A stretch of DNA of 64,000 bases, taken from assembly GCF_003018235.1 (NCBI RefSeq), contig NZ_CP027437.1; one strand, written 5' to 3'. Of this stretch, positions 20,471 through 63,949 are shown piece after piece (the first letter of the stretch is position 1; the number at the start of each line of letters is the position of its first letter). The stretch comes from Escherichia coli (GTDB lineage: Bacteria; Pseudomonadota; Gammaproteobacteria; Enterobacterales; Enterobacteriaceae). The notes under the pieces are model-generated. The model saw nothing but the letters and a program-made list of their open reading frames with translations, had not been told where the DNA came from and did no database searches. The translations under genes were made by a program, and so were the position numbers.

Positions 20471-20535
20471 ACGTCGATTATCGCCGAACTTCGCGGCATA
20501 CTTTGCTTATTCTCCTTCGCCTAAAGGAACGTTTA

Positions 20536-20903
20536 TGGATAAGCAATCACTGCACGAAACGGCGAAACGCCTGGCCCTTGAGTTACCCTTTGTCGAGCTT
20601 TGCTGGCCTTTTGGCCCGGAGTTCGATGTTTTTAAAATTGGCGGCAAGATTTTTATGCTGTCGTCGGAGCTGCGCGGCGTCCCCTTTATCAATCTGAAGT
20701 CCGATCCACAAAAATCCCTGTTAAATCAGCAAATATACCCGAGCATCAAGCCAGGGTATCACATGAATAAAAAGCACTGGATTTCAGTGTATCCCGGCGA
20801 GGAAATCTCCGAAGCGTTACTTCGCGATCTGATCAACGATTCGTGGAATCTGGTGGTTGATGGTCTGGCTAAACGCGATCAAAAAAGAGTGCGTCCAGGC
20901 TAA
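20536..20903 (+). CDS. ybdF: uncharacterised protein YbdF
   Basis: Track ORF 20415..20903; start trimmed to [13 protein letters not shown] (ATG 20536). Confidence 0.8.
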
Positions 20904-39739: not shown

Positions 39740-41810
<2,071 letters not shown>

Positions 41811-42153
41811 TCAAAGCGATATTCAGCATTACTGGAATCTGCGAATTGTCGCCAGTTCGCTATGTTTAAGCCCCAGCCTGCTCAAAAAGAAATTAAAAAA
41901 CGAAAATACCAGCTATAGCCAGATTGTCACAGAGTGTCGTATGCGTTACGCCGTACAGATATTATTGATGGATAACAAAAATATCACTCAGGTAGCGCAA
42001 TTATGTGGCTATAGCAGCACGTCGTACTTTATCTCTGTTTTTAAGGCGTTTTACGGCCTGACACCGTTGAATTATCTCGCCAAACAGCGACAAAAAGTGA
42101 TGTGGTGAAGGGCAAAGCGGAAACAGATAAGACGGGCATAAATGAAGAAGAAA

Positions 42154-42620: not shown

Positions 42621-43574
42621 ATGCGGGCGAAACTTCTGGGAATAGTCCTGACAACCCCTATTGCGATCAGCTCTTTTGCTTCTACCGAGACTATATCGTT
42701 TACTCCTGACAACATAAATGCGGACATTAGTCTTGGAACTCTGAGCGGAAAAACAAAAGAGCGCGTTTATCTAGCTGAAGAAGGAGGCCGAAAAGTCAGT
42801 CAACTCGACTGGAAATTCAATAACGCTGCAATTATTAAAGGTGCAATTAATTGGGATTTGATGCCCCAGATATCTATTGGGGCTGCGGGCTGGACTACTC
42901 TCGGCAGCCGGGGTGGCAATATGGTCGATCAGGACTGGATGGATTCCAGTAACCCCGGAACCTGGACAGATGAAAGTAGGCACCCTGATACACAACTCAA
43001 TTATGCCAACGAATTTGATCTGAATATCAAAGGCTGGCTCCTCAACGAACCCAATTACCGCCTGGGACTCATGGCCGGATATCAGGAAAGCCGTTATAGC
43101 TTTACAGCCAGAGGTGGTTCCTATATCTACAGTTCTGAGGAGGGATTCAGAGATGATATCGGCTCCTTCCCGAATGGAGAAAGAGCAATCGGCTACAAAC
43201 AACGTTTTAAAATGCCCTACATTGGCTTGACTGGAAGTTATCGTTATGAAGATTTTGAACTCGGTGGCACATTTAAATACAGCGGCTGGGTGGAATCATC
43301 TGATAACGATGAACACTATGACCCGGGAAAAAGAATCACTTATCGCAGTAAGGTCAAAGACCAAAATTACTATTCTGTTGCAGTCAATGCAGGTTATTAC
43401 GTAACACCTAACGCAAAAGTTTATGTTGAAGGCGCATGGAATCGGGTTACGAATAAAAAAGGTAATACTTCACTTTATGATCACAATGATAACACTTCAG
43501 ACTACAGCAAAAATGGTGCAGGCATAGAAAACTATAACTTCATCACTACTGCTGGTCTTAAGTACACCTTTTAA
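42621..43574 (+). CDS. ompT: omptin outer membrane protease OmpT
   Basis: 317-aa ORF with a signal peptide and C-terminal F; recognised as OmpT. Confidence 0.9.
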   Translation: MRAKLLGIVLTTPIAISSFASTETISFTPDNINADISLGTLSGKTKERVYLAEEGGRKVSQLDWKFNNAAIIKGAINWDLMPQISIGAAGWTTLGSRGGNMVDQDWMDSSNPGTWTDESRHPDTQLNYANEFDLNIKGWLLNEPNYRLGLMAGYQESRYSFTARGGSYIYSSEEGFRDDIGSFPNGERAIGYKQRFKMPYIGLTGSYRYEDFELGGTFKYSGWVESSDNDEHYDPGKRITYRSKVKDQNYYSVAVNAGYYVTPNAKVYVEGAWNRVTNKKGNTSLYDHNDNTSDYSKNGAGIENYNFITTAGLKYTF

Positions 43575-43823: not shown

Positions 43824-44573
43824 TCAGTCAATTGTTTTGTTTATTCCATCTGTGACGCCGATTACTTTCTCAAAATAATGAGATGGCGTGACACCATAAT
43901 AATCTTTAAATGCACATATGAAATATGAAGTACTGTTATAGCCACATTTCTGGGCTACAACATTGATAGAATAAGAGTTTGAAGTTATGAGTTTTTTTGC
44001 ATACCTCATCCTAGTGTCTCTCAATACTTCAGTAAATGACGTTCCTTCATCCCTTAATCTTTTTTTTATTAAACTTTCACTCGTATAAATCAATTCCGCA
44101 ATATCTTTTAAATGCCATTGCCGCTCAATATTAAAACTGATTATTCCAGTAATTTTACAGGTAAATGTATTTATATTTGTTAGTATAAATGAATTTACAC
44201 TTTCGCGTTTTTTGAACATGGCAAGTAAGGATATACATAGTCGTTCTTTTAACCAAAGGGAGTGTGAGTCTGCTATTTTAATCCCTTCAAACAGAGAAAA
44301 AACAAGCGATAATGGAGGTTCCTCTTCAGCAATATAGTCATTCTTATCAAGAGTAAATTTGCCAGGCAGCTCATTATTCACGTCGATAAAAAAGGATAAA
44401 CATGTTTTCTTATCTATATCAACAATTCTTAGTTTAGAGGGGCATACTGGTAACTCCCTTCTAATTTTGTCGCTTACAATAAACAATGAATTTTTTTTGA
44501 ACGAGATAACTCTCCTGTTTATAATTAAATCAAATGATTGACAGATGAAAACTACGGAGCAAACATAATCCAT
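43824..44573 (-). CDS. appY: AraC-family transcriptional activator AppY
   Basis: 249-aa AT-rich ORF with a C-terminal AraC helix-turn-helix; recognised as AppY. Confidence 0.9.
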
Positions 44574-45237
44574 CTTGCACCTATCATAAAATTAAAACAA
44601 GTTGATAATAGTCAAATAACAACCAATTAAATACACAATCATAATCAGGATGATGTGCATTTATATTTTTATACACAAAATTATAGTTTGCAAATTTTAA
44701 TAAATTTCATTTAAGATTAAATTATTATATGTATATTATTTTTTATTCTAACGTATTTCAAAGTTACATTTTTCAACGCTTACTATGCTTTTTATTAACA
44801 TAAACTCACTACAACGCACCTGAAACCTCTTGCTATATATATGTCAACCGTTTGAATTTAAAATAAAAAGAGTATCATTTTTACTTGCATTTCTTATCAA
44901 GTCACATTCAACAACAGTAACAAAACATTATTAGAACCATTCAATTAACAAAAAACCAACATCCGGATTGCTTAACTTTTCTTTATTAAACGATATTGAA
45001 AATCAATTGATAAAATACATCTAAACAACTTTTTGGGGCGCAAAAGCATAACATCAAACCAACAAATAACACACCGAAAAAACTCACAATTAATAACCTA
45101 TGATATACATACTGTTTATTATGGTTGAATAAGCCACTCGATATCTGGCGTAACGGAAGTGTCTACACTGTTCAGCAGCACCCGATACTTCCATGCCTCT
45201 AGCAACAATCTTTCCTCCTCCGTTGTAATTTCCAGAT

Positions 45238-45378
45238 CTACAGCATGCTGAAGTGGCGCAATATGCTCACTCTCATTTTACCCTCAAAAATCCGGTCACA
45301 TTCTGCACAGTTCAACGCATTACGTTGTAGATCGGTGTTCTGGTCATTTGTTGATACACGTACATAGCCAATAAGCAT
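45238..45378 (-). pseudogene. remnant of a Gin/Pin/Cin-family serine DNA invertase (46 codons)
   Basis: Minus-strand [37 protein letters not shown]..., whose first 30 or so residues match the invertase N-terminus including the catalytic-Ser region; then it diverges and stops. Below the ORF-track size cutoff. Confidence 0.6.
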
Positions 45379-45440
45379 GTTAAATCCCCTTGGTAAAAGC
45401 AGGAATGATGCCATTTGCTTGTTATTTCTTCATTTTCATA

Positions 45441-45460
45441 AACGTTGGTTTGGGAGAAGG
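45441..45460. other. gix/cix-like recombination site (distal), inverted repeat of the site at 47279..47298
   Basis: aacgttggtttgggagaagg; its reverse complement matches gcttctcccaaaccaaggtt at 18 of 20 positions. Confidence 0.5.
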
Positions 45461-45926
45461 CTCTGCATTACCTGTTGGTGTGCCTGTTCCATGGCCTTCA
45501 GCCACACCGCCAACAGGCTGGCTGAAATGCAACGGTGCGGCATTTTCTGCTGAAGAATACCCGGAACTGGCAAAGGCTTATCCAACAAATAAATTACCTG
45601 ATTTACGCGGTGAGTTTATTCGTGGCTGGGATGACGGGCGCGGTATTGATGCAGGACGTGTTTTATTGAGTATTCAGGCCGGAATGCTGGAAAAGCACCG
45701 TCATCCTGTTGTCGCCAACGATGAGTATGACTCAAAAGAGGAATGGGAACTAGCGACAATCTTCAGAAGAGCATATAAGCAAGGCAGGGGGCTTGATGCT
45801 GCCGCTGCCGGAGGGAGTCTGATCCCATCACCGACACTTCATTCACGAGGGAGTATCGGTAATACTGGCGGGAGTGAAACCCGTCCACGAAATATTGCAT
45901 TTAACTATATCGTGAGGGCTGCATAA
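45441..45926 (+). CDS. alternative tail-fibre C-terminal segment in the currently unexpressed orientation
   Basis: C-terminal part of track ORF 45390..45926 with tail-fibre motifs (LPDLRGEFIRGWDDGRGID, NIAFNYIVRAA); there is no plausible start of its own, and the region upstream of the crossover site is not fibre-like. Confidence 0.55.
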   Translation, partial: NVGLGEGSALPVGVPVPWPSATPPTGWLKCNGAAFSAEEYPELAKAYPTNKLPDLRGEFIRGWDDGRGIDAGRVLLSIQAGMLEKHRHPVVANDEYDSKEEWELATIFRRAYKQGRGLDAAAAGGSLIPSPTLHSRGSIGNTGGSETRPRNIAFNYIVRAA

Positions 45927-46528
45927 TGGATAACGCCGTATTAAATAGCGAGCTTATTACCACGAAGGCGGGGAATATTACCGTCTATAACTATGATGGT
46001 GAGACGCGGGAATATATTTCTGCATCAACTGAATATCTTGCAGTGGGTGTCGGTATTCCAGCATATTCCTGTTTAGACGCTCCTGGTACATCTAAGGCTG
46101 GTTATACAATTTGCCGTTCTGTGGATTTAAAATCATGGGAATATGTGTCAGACCATCGCGGTGAAATCGTCTATAACACCGAAACGGGAGATGCCAAAGA
46201 AATCACAGCACTAGGCGACTATCCCGAAAATACAACCACTATCGCCCCGTTAACGCCATACGATAAATGGGATGGTGAAAAATGGGTGACAGATACTGAG
46301 GCACAACACGGTGCCGCAGTAGAAGCGGCAGAAGCACAGCGCCAGTCACTGATTGATGCAGCAATGGCTTCCATCAGTCTGATTCAACTGAAATTGCAGG
46401 CCGGACGTAAACCGACGCAGGCAGAAACAACCAGACTTAACGCTGTGCTGGATTACATTGACGCGGTGACGGCAACAGATACCAGCACCGCGCCGGATGT
46501 CATCTGGCCTGAACTGCCGGAGGCGTAG
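45926..46528 (+). CDS. tail fibre assembly chaperone (Tfa), partner of the alternative fibre segment
   Basis: 200-aa ORF whose start overlaps the preceding stop; conserved Tfa C-terminus. Confidence 0.7.
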   Translation: MDNAVLNSELITTKAGNITVYNYDGETREYISASTEYLAVGVGIPAYSCLDAPGTSKAGYTICRSVDLKSWEYVSDHRGEIVYNTETGDAKEITALGDYPENTTTIAPLTPYDKWDGEKWVTDTEAQHGAAVEAAEAQRQSLIDAAMASISLIQLKLQAGRKPTQAETTRLNAVLDYIDAVTATDTSTAPDVIWPELPEA

Positions 46529-46943
46529 GCCATTCAATATCTGGCGCACTGGAGGTATCAACCAGCTCCAGTGCATCCAGATAATCCAGCCACAAATTAT
46601 ATTGCGCCAGTTCCTCACCTTTCAGACGACCAATAGCGGCTTTACCGGGCCATTGTTTACTGTTCATGTATTCGTTGGCCTGGTTAATCAATAATTGCCT
46701 CTCTGATTCGGCCTGTTCAATAAGTTCCTCATGTGATGGTGGAGGTATTTCAGCCCATGTGGGAAAACCATTTTCCCCTGCAACTCGGATTTTCCCTTGT
46801 GGCGGTTCCGCCATATATTTTACAGAAATATCATCAGGAATATCTAATGCATTAGCAGGCCATGTTCCATTTACTTCATAAGTGTTTTTTAAATTAACAG
46901 CATAAAAAGCATTTTCCGAAGGGGAATAAATATATTGATTCAT
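46500..46943 (-). CDS. tail fibre assembly chaperone (Tfa), expressed orientation
   Basis: 147-aa ORF convergent with the other tfa and overlapping it by 29 bp; conserved C-terminus SSAPDIEWPTPP. Confidence 0.7.
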   Translation of the reverse strand: MNQYIYSPSENAFYAVNLKNTYEVNGTWPANALDIPDDISVKYMAEPPQGKIRVAGENGFPTWAEIPPPSHEELIEQAESERQLLINQANEYMNSKQWPGKAAIGRLKGEELAQYNLWLDYLDALELVDTSSAPDIEWPTPPAVQAR

Positions 46944-46944
46944 A

Positions 46945-47583
46945 TTATCTTCCTATTGCGATAATCATAGTTCCATACAAACCATTTCCGGTTGATACTT
47001 TTAAGGTTACTGATGTCCTTGTTGTCGTGTACCCCATAAGTTTAAAGGTCGGAGCAGCCGTTAATGTGCCATCTGACCATAAGGCACTAACAGCCAGTGC
47101 GCCTGAAGGAAATGCAATAGGGAAATTACCTGTAGTTCCGTTAGTGTCCGCCCCATAAACATTCATCGAAAACATTTGGACAATATGACCACTTGGTAAC
47201 TGAAACCAGTTTTTGCCAGATGGAAATGCAGACATATCTGGTATCTGATTTTCCCCTGTTCCCACATTCCGTTTTGCCGCTTCTCCCAAACCAAGGTTTT
47301 CGAGAGCCGTTTTCACCGTGCCGTCCGATTTGATATCGCCAAACGGATTTTTGCGGCTTAACAGCAGCGCACGAAGCGCGGTAAGCAGCTGGTCATGCCG
47401 CCCCTTCTCCAGGCTGGCACCGGATGCCTCCACCACGCTGCAGAGTTCTTCCTGCAACATGTCAAAGTAGTCATCATCCAGATCGGTGGCAGGTGTGCCG
47501 GTCTGGGGGTTACCACGGGTAAAACCGTTCTTACCCGCGCCGAACTTATCCTTCTGCGCGGTTTTCGTGTCTATACGATGCAT
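46945..47583 (-). CDS. tail fibre protein (constant N-terminus plus variable C-terminus)
   Basis: 212-aa ORF; the crossover site lies inside the gene near codon 95. Confidence 0.7.
47279..47298. other. gix/cix-like recombination site (proximal, inside the tail fibre gene)
   Basis: gcttctcccaaaccaaggtt, inverted relative to 45441..45460. Confidence 0.5.
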
Positions 47584-47586
47584 GGA

Positions 47587-60911: not shown

Positions 60912-62094
60912 CGGAGGGTTTCGTGGTCATGTTCATCGGTGTGAGATAGACATCCCCACCGGGACGCGGATTCATATCTTCCAGGTCGCGGCAGTCATTG
61001 GGAGAGTAAATTCCCCAGTTAATCCCGGTGGCGTAGGCTTCAAAACGGGACTTCATATCCCCGCGCAGTAACGCCCCGGCGTTAAATTTGGCGTAATAAA
61101 CGCCCTGCTTACTTTTTCGTACCAGTCCGGTGTTGATCCGCTGCTCAATGCGGGTCAGATACGGCACCAGTGAATAGTTGATAAATCCCAGCCCCAGCTC
61201 TTCGATATTGTTGAAGGTGGCGCGATCGGTGTTCTGCACCATGTGCAATGGCACACGGAACAGACGACAGATTTCTTCAAGCTGAAACTTGCGGGTTTCC
61301 AGGAACTGGCTGTCCTCGGCGTTCAGCGCCATCGACTTCCAGTCCAGCCCCATCTCAAGGATCATCGGGCGGTGAGCATTACCAAGCCCGGTGTGACGCT
61401 CCTCAAAATCTTTCTTCAGACGCTCATAAGCCTGATCCGACAGCGTCTGCTCTGTACGCAACACACCGGACGTCACCGCACCATTGCTGAACAGTCTGGC
61501 CCCGTGCTCTTCGGTCGCAGCTGCCAGCGATATTGCCTCGCGGGCATAGGCGATGGGATTCAGTCCCACCAGACCGTCCAGCGTCAGCGTGCGCACATGC
61601 CAGATATCTTCCTGGCTCAGTACATCCGTGGAGCCGTCCGGGAATGTGACCTGGTAAACCGGTTCCCAGCTACTGTTAAGCTTCGGTACCACACAACCTG
61701 GGTCGACGGGCAGCAGTTCAGCCACTTCGCCAAATGCTTTCACTTTGTAGGCGTAAAAGTTTCCCCGCAGGCACAGACAGGTGATCACCAGCTCCCAGAA
61801 CTCCTGCGGCGTCATATAGCCATTGGGATGCGTGGAGATCAGCTTATGCAGACGTTCGCCGGTGGCTCTCTGTTTCAGGCTGCCGTTCAGGTGATACAGG
61901 TTGCAGGGCAACATCCCGACCGACTCCGCCAGCACCCTGACGCAGGAAAAAACCGCCGTCAGTCGCATGGCCCGCTGGCTGCTGATCTGCTTTCCGGTAT
62001 AGGTGTCATATGACAGCCCGATAGCATCCGCCAGCTCTGCTGGCGTGGTCACCGGTGCGTCACTTTTTCGTTGAAATAATCCCGAAAAGAACAC
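60853..62094 (-). CDS. portal protein, HK97 family
   Basis: 413-aa ORF upstream of the protease/capsid genes. Confidence 0.85.
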   Translation of the reverse strand: MFFSGLFQRKSDAPVTTPAELADAIGLSYDTYTGKQISSQRAMRLTAVFSCVRVLAESVGMLPCNLYHLNGSLKQRATGERLHKLISTHPNGYMTPQEFWELVITCLCLRGNFYAYKVKAFGEVAELLPVDPGCVVPKLNSSWEPVYQVTFPDGSTDVLSQEDIWHVRTLTLDGLVGLNPIAYAREAISLAAATEEHGARLFSNGAVTSGVLRTEQTLSDQAYERLKKDFEERHTGLGNAHRPMILEMGLDWKSMALNAEDSQFLETRKFQLEEICRLFRVPLHMVQNTDRATFNNIEELGLGFINYSLVPYLTRIEQRINTGLVRKSKQGVYYAKFNAGALLRGDMKSRFEAYATGINWGIYSPNDCRDLEDMNPRPGGDVYLTPMNMTTKPSDGSKAGKQKDNANADETTS

Positions 62095-62276
62095 TATTTA
62101 CCTCCGCCGACAGACGGCTGTGTACGGTCGAGATATCGCGCCACCAGCCACGACCAGAACAGGCACAGCGCCCCGGCAACAACAAACCCCGCCGGGGGAT
62201 AAATCAGCCAGGCACCATACGCCAGCAAAAGCGCACCCAGCACGCCCACCAGAGGCGCGAGAATCAGCATGATCAT
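62094..62276 (-). CDS. small two-span membrane protein of unknown function
   Basis: 60-aa hydrophobic ORF wedged between terminase and portal, start/stop-coupled to the portal gene. Confidence 0.4.
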
Positions 62277-62287
62277 AATTACCTCAG

Positions 62288-63949
62288 TTAAAGCGAGCGG
62301 ATCCCGTAGGACTCAATGTGATCAGACAGCGTGTCTTCTTTCTCGTACAGCATGGCTCTGCCAACCGCCATAATCAGCGCAACTGCACCATCAATTTTGT
62401 TTTCCGCCTGCTCCTTGACGGGCTTCACCACATCATCGTTACCCGGAATGGTTTTGCCGACCACGTTGCCGATACACCAGGTCATGATGGGATTGCCGTC
62501 ATGATGAAAACGCCCCGATTCAATTGCCGCTTCCAGCTCTTTCAGCGGGTCGGACATGTTGGTGTAGTTCTGAATGATGGTGATGGGGTTCAGGTCTTCA
62601 TCCGCAAGGTCATGCGACAGCCCGGTCGCCCCGAAGGGGTCGATGGGTGACTCACTGACCGGGCTGATTTTGTTCGCCGCTTTGGCCTCCTCGAGGATGT
62701 AGCGATAATCCACCTCCGCACCATCGGTAACGGTCAGAACGCCCATTTCCACCCATTTCTGAAAGCGCTCGGCTGTCCGGCGATCTTCATTTTTCTCGAC
62801 GCTGTACACCGTGTCATACGGTACCCAGAAGCGCGGAGCCACACTGTAGTAATGCGTTTTACCGTCAATCTCGCGGGTATAAAGTCGCGCCATACTGTTC
62901 ATATCCAGCTTACGCGCCAGGTCAAAGGCCAGAATGCACGGCTGCCCCTCAAACTGCTCAAGGGTCAGTGATTTATCCTCGCAGCTCTGCCAGCTCACCA
63001 GGTTGAAATACGCCGAACGCGCCGACACCCAGATATTGAGGTGTTTTGTTTTAAAGACGTTTGCCAGACGGGCGTTATTTTTCGCACGCTGCTGCTGACT
63101 TAACAAAAATTCGCGATAAACCGACACGCCAATATTTGGATTGGCTTTTTCCAGCACCTGCGGGTCGGTCCAGTCGTCACCTTCATCAACGGTATAGATG
63201 ATCCCGAACAGTTCATCGTTGGGCACCGAGCCGTTGAGCATCTCGATGACTTCCCGCCGCTTGTCGTAGCACGGCCCCTCAATGTTGTACCCGGCAGTAG
63301 TAATGGCCCACATCAGTGGCTGACGTCGCGCCCCCATCCCGGTAAGCATCGTGGTGTAAAGCGCATCGGTGGCGTGCTCGTGATATTCATCCACCACCGC
63401 ACAGTGGGGTGATGATCCATCACCGGGGTTACCGATCAGCGGTTCAAAACGCGCACCATCCTCCGGACGGTTCATGTTTGAGGCGTTAACCTCAATCCCG
63501 AACGCTTCCGTCAGCATGGGTGTGCGTTTACACATCAGTCGCGCCGGGCGAAAGACTTCCCACGCCTGTTTCTCTGTCGTGGCACCGGAATACACTTCCG
63601 CGCCAAACTCGTTATCACAGGCAAAACAATACAGGGCGACACCGGCAGAGATTGCCGATTTGCCGTTCTTACGGGGGATTTCGGTATACACCTCACGGAA
63701 GCGGCGCAGCCGGGAGCCTTTATTGACCCAGCCAAACGCGCAGCAGATCACAAAGAGCTGCCACGGCTCCAGCGTGATGGGCATCCTCTTGAATGCCCAC
63801 TCACCCTTGGTGTGCGGCAACAGCTGAATAAATTTGGCGGCCCGTTCAGCCAGGTCCTTGTCGAAGCGGTAACGAAACGACTTACTTTTTTCCGCCATCA
63901 GGTCATCAAGATGGCGCTGGCAGGCCTGAATCACAAACTGGCAGGCCAC
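62288..63949 (-). CDS. terminase large subunit
   Basis: 553-aa ORF at the head of the structural module. Confidence 0.85.

Follow-up and report, generated by a model that had tools for sequence, protein, structure and literature searches.

Can an invertible tail-fibre segment go on inverting once the invertase gene beside it has been destroyed? The question is raised by a prophage locus at positions 45238-47583 of a 64,000-nucleotide stretch of Escherichia coli DNA (contig NZ_CP027437.1 of assembly GCF_003018235.1; the whole stretch is called the window below), in which a segment of the kind carried by the e14 element of K-12 adjoins a stub of the invertase gene pin. The conclusion reached, with a probability of about 0.8, is that the locus is a host-range switch of the P-segment type, belonging to an e14-like myovirus prophage and still inverted by a Pin-type invertase acting in trans. 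The inversions and their exact end points are seen in near-identical genomes; the enzyme is what we infer behind them.

A repeat search returned a single outstanding inverted repeat, 45440-45459 and 47280-47299, which matches at 19 of 20 positions. An earlier reading of the letters alone (the sequence-only reading) had recognized this pair, and only its coordinates (45441-45460 and 47279-47298) and its count of 18 matches in 20 needed correction. The 20-bp arms are the cores of two 26-bp crossover sites. The pix site on the pin side, TTTTCATAAACG TT GGTTTGGGAGAA, lies at 45433-45458 with its crossover dinucleotide at 45445-45446, and the pix site inside the fibre gene, TTCTCCCAAACC AA GGTTTTCGAGAG, lies at 47281-47306 with the dinucleotide at 47293-47294. 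The resemblance to gix and cix that had been proposed was borne out by alignment: both sites are identical at 26/26 positions to the two pix sites of the K-12 e14 P segment (the fibre-gene site as reverse complement), and they are related to Mu gix (TTATCCAAAACC TC GGTTTACAGGAA) and P1 cix (cixR, TTCTCTTAAACC AA GGTATTGGATAA). A half-site position weight matrix (PWM) was built from gix, cix and pix, and every 26-mer of the window was scored with it. The pin-side site reached 27.3 bits and the fibre-gene site 29.5 bits, the highest value in the window; these scores are far beyond chance, the next-best 26-mer having 14.0 bits. This third-best match, TTCGCCTAAAGG AA CGTTTATGGATA at 20516-20541, belongs to ordinary chromosomal DNA and is separated from the switch by about 25 kb.

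The segment measures 1,846 bp, has a pix site at each end, and holds two convergent cassettes, each of a fibre tip and a chaperone, as the sequence-only reading had described. The expressed tail-fibre gene (46945-47583, minus strand, 212 aa) is made of a constant part, Sc (47295-47583), which supplies the N-terminus up to the site as had been stated, and of a variable, gp53-like C-terminus, Sv (46945-47292); its chaperone gene, tfa, encodes 147 aa (46500-46943, minus strand). On the plus strand are Sv' (45447-45929), a silent alternative fibre C-terminus of the collar-domain type, and tfa' (45926-46528), which encodes a TfaE-like chaperone of 200 aa and is 90% identical to e14 tfaE at the nucleotide level. 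The reading frame survives exchange at the central dinucleotide: when the segment was flipped in silico, Sv' came into frame with the constant part, and the fibre of now 212 aa became an open 256-aa protein. Both cassettes, the silent Sv' and tfa' included, are intact as open reading frames (ORFs). The locus is a Din-family (Gin/Cin/Pin/Hin) invertible tail-fibre segment of the e14 P-segment type.

The invertase remnant is a 46-codon ORF on the minus strand (45378 to 45241, stop codon 45238-45240), which starts MLIGYVRVSTNDQNTDLQRNAL and in which nucleotides 1-107 of pin are fused out of frame to tfaX' DNA. The pin-derived part (45272-45378) amounts to about 36 codons, among them the catalytic-serine motif YVRVST, and residues 1-35 match DNA invertase families (phrog_125, E 1.4e-13). 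When aligned with cin, gin, e14 pinE and the intact pinE of muskdeer13-4, whose prophage is 94-96% identical to that of the window, pin homology was found to run through nucleotide 107, with none beyond; likewise, the BLAST pieces against phage records break at 45271/45272. Past the junction lies the tfaX' remnant (45119-45262, minus strand), the C-terminal ~47 codons of a tail-fibre assembly protein, which is collinear with K-12 DLP12 tfaX-appY, has PHROG tail-fibre-assembly matches, and is annotated as a 47-aa Caudo_TAP gene in public contigs. The tblastn search of the 64-kb window gave no other invertase homologue and no 3' pin sequence. The 46-codon ORF is not a functional recombinase, and the element cannot make its own invertase, because pin has lost everything after nucleotide 107 and a tfa remnant and cargo DNA have taken its place.

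Other accounts of the junction were discarded. A sequencing frameshift that hides a full-length pin was ruled out, given that the DNA past nucleotide 107 is tfaX-like and collinear with K-12 and that the window has no 3' pin; the reduction of the invertase to a remnant, as first read, is a true truncation. The breakpoint is not one shared with K-12 tfaX, which extends further 5', and it was not made by Pin at a cryptic site, since the PWM scan of 45260-45285 showed no pix-like sequence. A likeness of 'IWKLQRR', past the junction, to Pin residues 60-65 was judged to be due to chance; it is an out-of-frame reading of tfaX that is present in K-12 too. Other forms of pin decay were also seen. In one locus (L008; compared loci are numbered with an L) the invertase is shortened to 119 aa. 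The profile phrog_8275, labelled DNA invertase and only 51 positions long, matches stub residues 1-35, which suggests that short N-terminal invertase fragments recur in phage genomes.

For the orientation of the segment, the protein expected after inversion and the 47-aa tfaX' product were each looked up by exact sequence in public contigs. The 256-aa flipped-state fusion protein is encoded on six contigs, one of which (L011, GCA_025095815.1) has the tfaX'-ompT neighbours of the window. Over 8,584 bp this contig is 99.965% identical to the window flipped in silico, truncated junction included; it departs from it by just two substitutions and one A-run indel, all in the appY region, with no difference in the tail genes, anywhere in the segment, at either site or at the pin'|tfaX' junction. 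Another contig (L005, GCA_023091305.1) is 99.988% identical to the window in the window's own orientation. The end points of the inversion fall within the 20-bp repeats, and the pin-side pix site is the end point both here (L011/L017) and in the three loci described below (L018, L012 and L020). The sequence-only reading had taken the switch to be probably locked in its current orientation; these two contigs, together with the second inversion described below, speak against that. Its hedge, that an invertase from another element might act in trans, is favoured by the same evidence, in which the enzyme itself is inferred.

The exact 47-aa tfaX' product was found on 24 contigs. The gp53-type tip is joined to Sc in 17 of them and the collar-type tip in five; one more is flipped with a further deletion, and the last is cut by the contig end. 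In three of the 24 the smaller segment described below is flipped. These counts assign to unlisted similar places the arrangement of their representative. The 24 contigs span several Sv/tfa allele groups, and the junction is present in all. The locus does not behave as a decayed switch, with both orientations among its carriers and the silent ORFs undamaged. One contig (L016, GCA_030782065.1) was considered as another invertase-mediated rearrangement and rejected, its extra breakpoint being inside Sv' and not at a pix site; at L016:1-1460 the main segment is flipped, the Sv' breakpoint joins YdaT-toxin and integrase DNA, and the rest of the prophage is missing. GCA_025095815.1 (L011/L017) has a one-base deletion in the appY A-run (window 43992 region), and its annotation has no appY gene. 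Four carriers of the junction (L012, L014, L015 and L019) have other Sv/tfa alleles opposite window 45640-47230, with 89-90% or no identity inside the segment and 95-99% in the flanks. Since the alleles differ inside the segment and the flanks are similar, the cassettes have been exchanged by recombination independently of the stub.

A second, smaller inversion bears directly on what happened after the truncation. In L018, L012 and L020 the piece 44991-45444 is inverted (454 bp), which comprises the tfaX' and pin' remnants with their junction inside; since the junction lies within the inverted piece, this inversion postdates the truncation of pin. Its partner for the pin-side pix site is a sequence in the appY-tfaX' spacer, site3 (44977-45002, TTTTCTTTATTA AA CGATATTGAAAA). 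The three junction sequences are exactly those of an in silico exchange within AACG, four bases that both sites share and that contain the AA/TT core, and the exchange point coincides with the central dinucleotide at which this enzyme family cuts. Homologous recombination would be a very unlikely cause, because only four bases are identical at the exchange. Site3 scored 2.2 bits with the PWM (rank 95 of 63,974, fourteenth among AA/TT cores) and is a quasi-site, presumably used owing to its closeness. K-12 carries site3 unchanged and in the window arrangement, and the window state is therefore ancestral for this piece. The flipped piece is 100% identical to that of the window in L018 and 95.8% identical in L012 and L020, which suggests at least two inversion events or an old polymorphism. 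The locus is not a multiple-inversion system such as Min of p15B or the fibre loci with three repeats, as its third site scores so low and borders no fibre cassette.

The same junction, pin nucleotide 107|tfa', was found in four complete genomes (KOr019, P4, FP4 and A34) in a different prophage, which lies at the yfhH-tadA locus and has a DUF2612/wedge-type baseplate. Relatives at yfhH with an intact 184-aa invertase (L031 and L034) are without the tfa' remnant and without the two genes that follow it, and the truncation in this family therefore came about when a tfa'-linked cargo block replaced the 3' part of pin. The fusion protein that this family would make in the flipped state is recorded in 414 blocks. 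In L027, L029, L033 and L030 a 2,127-bp flank, junction included, is 100% identical to KOr019, and the 1,880-bp segment is inverted. The invertase-less module has thus been seen in both orientations twice. The cargo of the yfhH family matches PDC-M50A and a TIR ThsB-like model: in KOr019 (L021:3518-4799, NZ_CP091665.1) the place of the pin 3' part is taken by genes for a 152-aa PDC-M50A-type protein and a 272-aa TIR-like ThsB1-type protein, which form a candidate anti-phage pair.

How a segment without an invertase could be inverted is suggested by what the stub has kept. Nucleotides 19-90 of cin are marked as the Cin enhancer in P1 record AF234172, and the homologous stretch of the stub (pin nucleotides 19-90; 45289-45360, minus strand) is 65/72 identical to e14 pinE; in the A34 remnant the stretch is 71/72 identical. 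Two conserved G-N13-C 15-mers within it, at nucleotides 22-36 (45343-45357) and 71-85 (45294-45308), are kept in gin, in pinE and in all remnants. About 96 bp separate the centre of the first G-N13-C core from that of the pix site; the 65-bp Hin enhancer, which carries a Fis site at both of its ends, is placed about 100 bp away from hixL (PMC3798978). By homology, 45289-45360 is predicted to bind Fis and to have enhancer activity. The proposed mechanism is that a Pin/Gin-family serine invertase from another prophage in the cell would bind both pix sites, assemble with the Fis-bound enhancer in the pin stub and invert the 1,846-bp segment, by which the fibre would be switched between the 212-aa form with the gp53-type tip and the 256-aa form with the collar-type tip. 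Occasionally the same enzyme would pair the pin-side pix site with the quasi-site and flip the 454-bp pin'-tfaX' remnant. Such action in trans has been described for PinQ of Qin, by which the e14 P segment is inverted (PMC12529663); the repeat used there, TTGGTTTGGGAGAAGG, is also present in the window, at 45445-45460. The e14 segment was inverted in 33% of 562 E. coli genomes (PMC12529663). A chimeric query of cargo, pinE and pinQ matched 5,067 of 5,426 complete genomes, some of the matches being resolvase-like, and a supply of invertase in trans is plausible from these matches.

Several points weigh against this reading. The polymorphism is between isolates and not within one culture, and this particular strain could be static. 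The enhancer function rests on homology, and the survival of nucleotides 19-90 is statistically unremarkable, as about 84% of 3'-side breakpoints in the gene would spare them. Apart from the stub, the tblastn search found no invertase homologue in the window. The chimeric query matches three places each in KOr019, P4 and FP4, which is no proof of an intact gene; one of the three is cargo, one is presumably the stub, and one is elsewhere.

On a rival view the switch is frozen: the loss of pin would have locked the segment, and the differences in orientation would be older than the truncation or have no bearing on this strain. The cut invertase gene and the lack of another in the window agree with it, as does the single orientation of the four complete yfhH-family genomes, and in the K-12 pinE deletion mutant the P segment is locked (PMC12529663). 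The Keio pinE deletion, however, removes the enhancer along with the gene and is not a comparable case; its locked phenotype is compatible with a need for the enhancer in cis and is no proof of it. Moreover, in each of two prophage families, sequences that are otherwise 99.97-100% identical share one and the same junction and differ in orientation, and the 454-bp inversion took place after the truncation. A frozen switch is accordingly regarded as improbable.

That the orientations differ without any site-specific recombinase is very improbable. Identical inverted sequence of 15-20 bp is present at the ends of the main segment, on which RecA might act, and e14-like modules are common in E. coli (matches in 3,186 of 5,426 genomes), which might allow gene conversion by a co-resident e14-like prophage; an assembly error was weighed as a third route. 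The 20-bp repeats are shorter than most assembly k-mers. The smaller inversion shares only its four bases at the exchange, exactly at the core dinucleotide, and its hybrid junctions recur in three assemblies and two allele backgrounds, while in the flipped segment of L011 the only mismatches are those expected at two repeat positions, which makes a foreign donor unlikely. It would also be conceivable that the pin'|tfa' junction formed independently in each lineage after flipping, for example by recombination at a hotspot, and that no inversion followed the truncation. The occurrence in two prophage families whose tfa' sequences have diverged (~80% identity) would fit such recurrence, but in all copies about 30 nt to either side of the junction are identical, no pix-like sequence lies at it, the flanks are 100% identical across orientations within each family, and the phage collection searched holds no record with the junction. 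Independent origins are extremely improbable on this evidence. Inversion in trans by a Pin-type enzyme is the reading retained.

Whether the arrangement is itself under selection is another matter. It is possible, if on balance doubtful, that the pix-pix segment and its 107-nt pin stub together form a 'dependent switch', selected and transferable, which has shed its invertase, kept the two sites and the enhancer, gained cargo, and relies on the invertases of co-resident prophages. As part of this tentative idea, the freed space would hold appY-ompT-envY in the window and the defence-like TIR/PDC-M50 pair in the yfhH family. As a separate observation, the DNA downstream of intact pinE (L002-L004 and L007-L010) is highly variable cargo and includes genes for a LEM-3-like GIY-YIG protein, a retron Ec67-type reverse transcriptase, a RelA/SpoT-domain protein, an M78 peptidase and a 432-aa unknown protein; the pin-distal end has the appearance of a hotspot for cargo or defence genes.

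The chromosomal part of the window ends with the tail of envY (41764-42108), ompT (42621-43574, plus strand) and appY (43824-44573, minus strand), and the prophage comes next. Its position, adjoining appY-ompT-envY, is the DLP12 site: the stretch 44580-45271 is collinear with the right end of K-12 DLP12, tfaX-appY, at 96% identity (megablast), and the K-12 match reaches up to 45271. Directly upstream of the fibre gene is the gene for a YmfQ/Mu gp48-like baseplate wedge protein (47587-48171, minus strand), the first of a complete Mu/e14-like myovirus structural module with homologues of the baseplate proteins gp48/47/46/45, tape measure, sheath, head, portal and, at its end, terminase (62288-63949). 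The e14 element of K-12 matches in pieces, namely aaaE against 61687-63424, jayE-ymfQ-stfP against 47265-48949, tfaE against 45876-46604, and stfE and the pinE 5' part against 45284-45678. Because it matches the structural module only in pieces, e14 is a deleted relative of the phage type in the window, and its aaaE joined to jayE looks like the product of deletion from such a complete module. DLP12 of K-12, with a terminase fragment joined to tfaD, appears to be another deletion derivative; the window holds a far fuller prophage at that position. Domains were assigned from profile matches, PHROG included; NCBIfam gave no useful names for the seven locus proteins. A promoter and terminator scan of 44500-45600 gave sites no more numerous than in shuffled sequence.

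Among known systems the closest is the e14 P segment with PinE, which shares, besides the sites, 90-96% nucleotide identity in the common parts, the order ymfQ, fibre (Sc+Sv), tfa, tfa', Sv', pin, and the same logic of in-frame fusion (PMC4272514, PMC12529663). In contrast to e14, the window has pin cut and fused to a tfa remnant and appY-ompT-envY, retains in full the structural module lost from e14, and carries its prophage at the DLP12 position and not at icd. The G segment of Mu with Gin and the C segment of P1 with Cin are switches of the same kind, with the enhancer in the 5' end of the invertase gene, whereas the cassettes of the window are much shorter, belong to other fibre families and have no invertase in cis. 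Hin and Fin of Salmonella are cross-acting invertases. The action of PinQ on e14, an unlinked segment flipped by an invertase encoded elsewhere (PMC12529663), is what is proposed here; in the cross-acting cases the target keeps its own invertase gene, whereas the target in the window has none and would depend wholly on a foreign enzyme. For Cin with quasi-cix and for Min of p15B, a third site pairs with a true site and gives extra arrangements. A fibre locus with three repeats has also been described (PMC4272514). The window shares with these the pairing of a third site with a true one and an exchange marked by matching central dinucleotides, but its third site is very weak and borders no coding cassette, and what is flipped is the remnant of a dead invertase gene with the enhancer homologue. 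The kind of switch, that of the e14 P segment, is known, and its state here is new: the invertase is gone, the enhancer homologue is kept, the segment still flips in nature, and an extra inversion takes place at a quasi-site.

Annotation would file this locus as a dead switch, and the comparative evidence says that it is still flipping; 'no recombinase nearby' is thus an unsafe criterion for calling an invertible locus inactive. The idea that the 5' end of such invertase genes serves at the same time as an enhancer in cis is also put to a natural test by the stub, since a remnant that keeps this end remains invertible. If the proposed reading is true, the choice of tail fibre in one prophage depends on the enzyme of another element, and if the 'dependent switch' idea also held, host-range or defence switching of one prophage would be controlled by another. 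Inversion of the homologous e14 segment has been reported to block adsorption of phage T2 (PMC12529663); if this effect applies here, a defence phenotype of the cell would depend on a foreign enzyme too.

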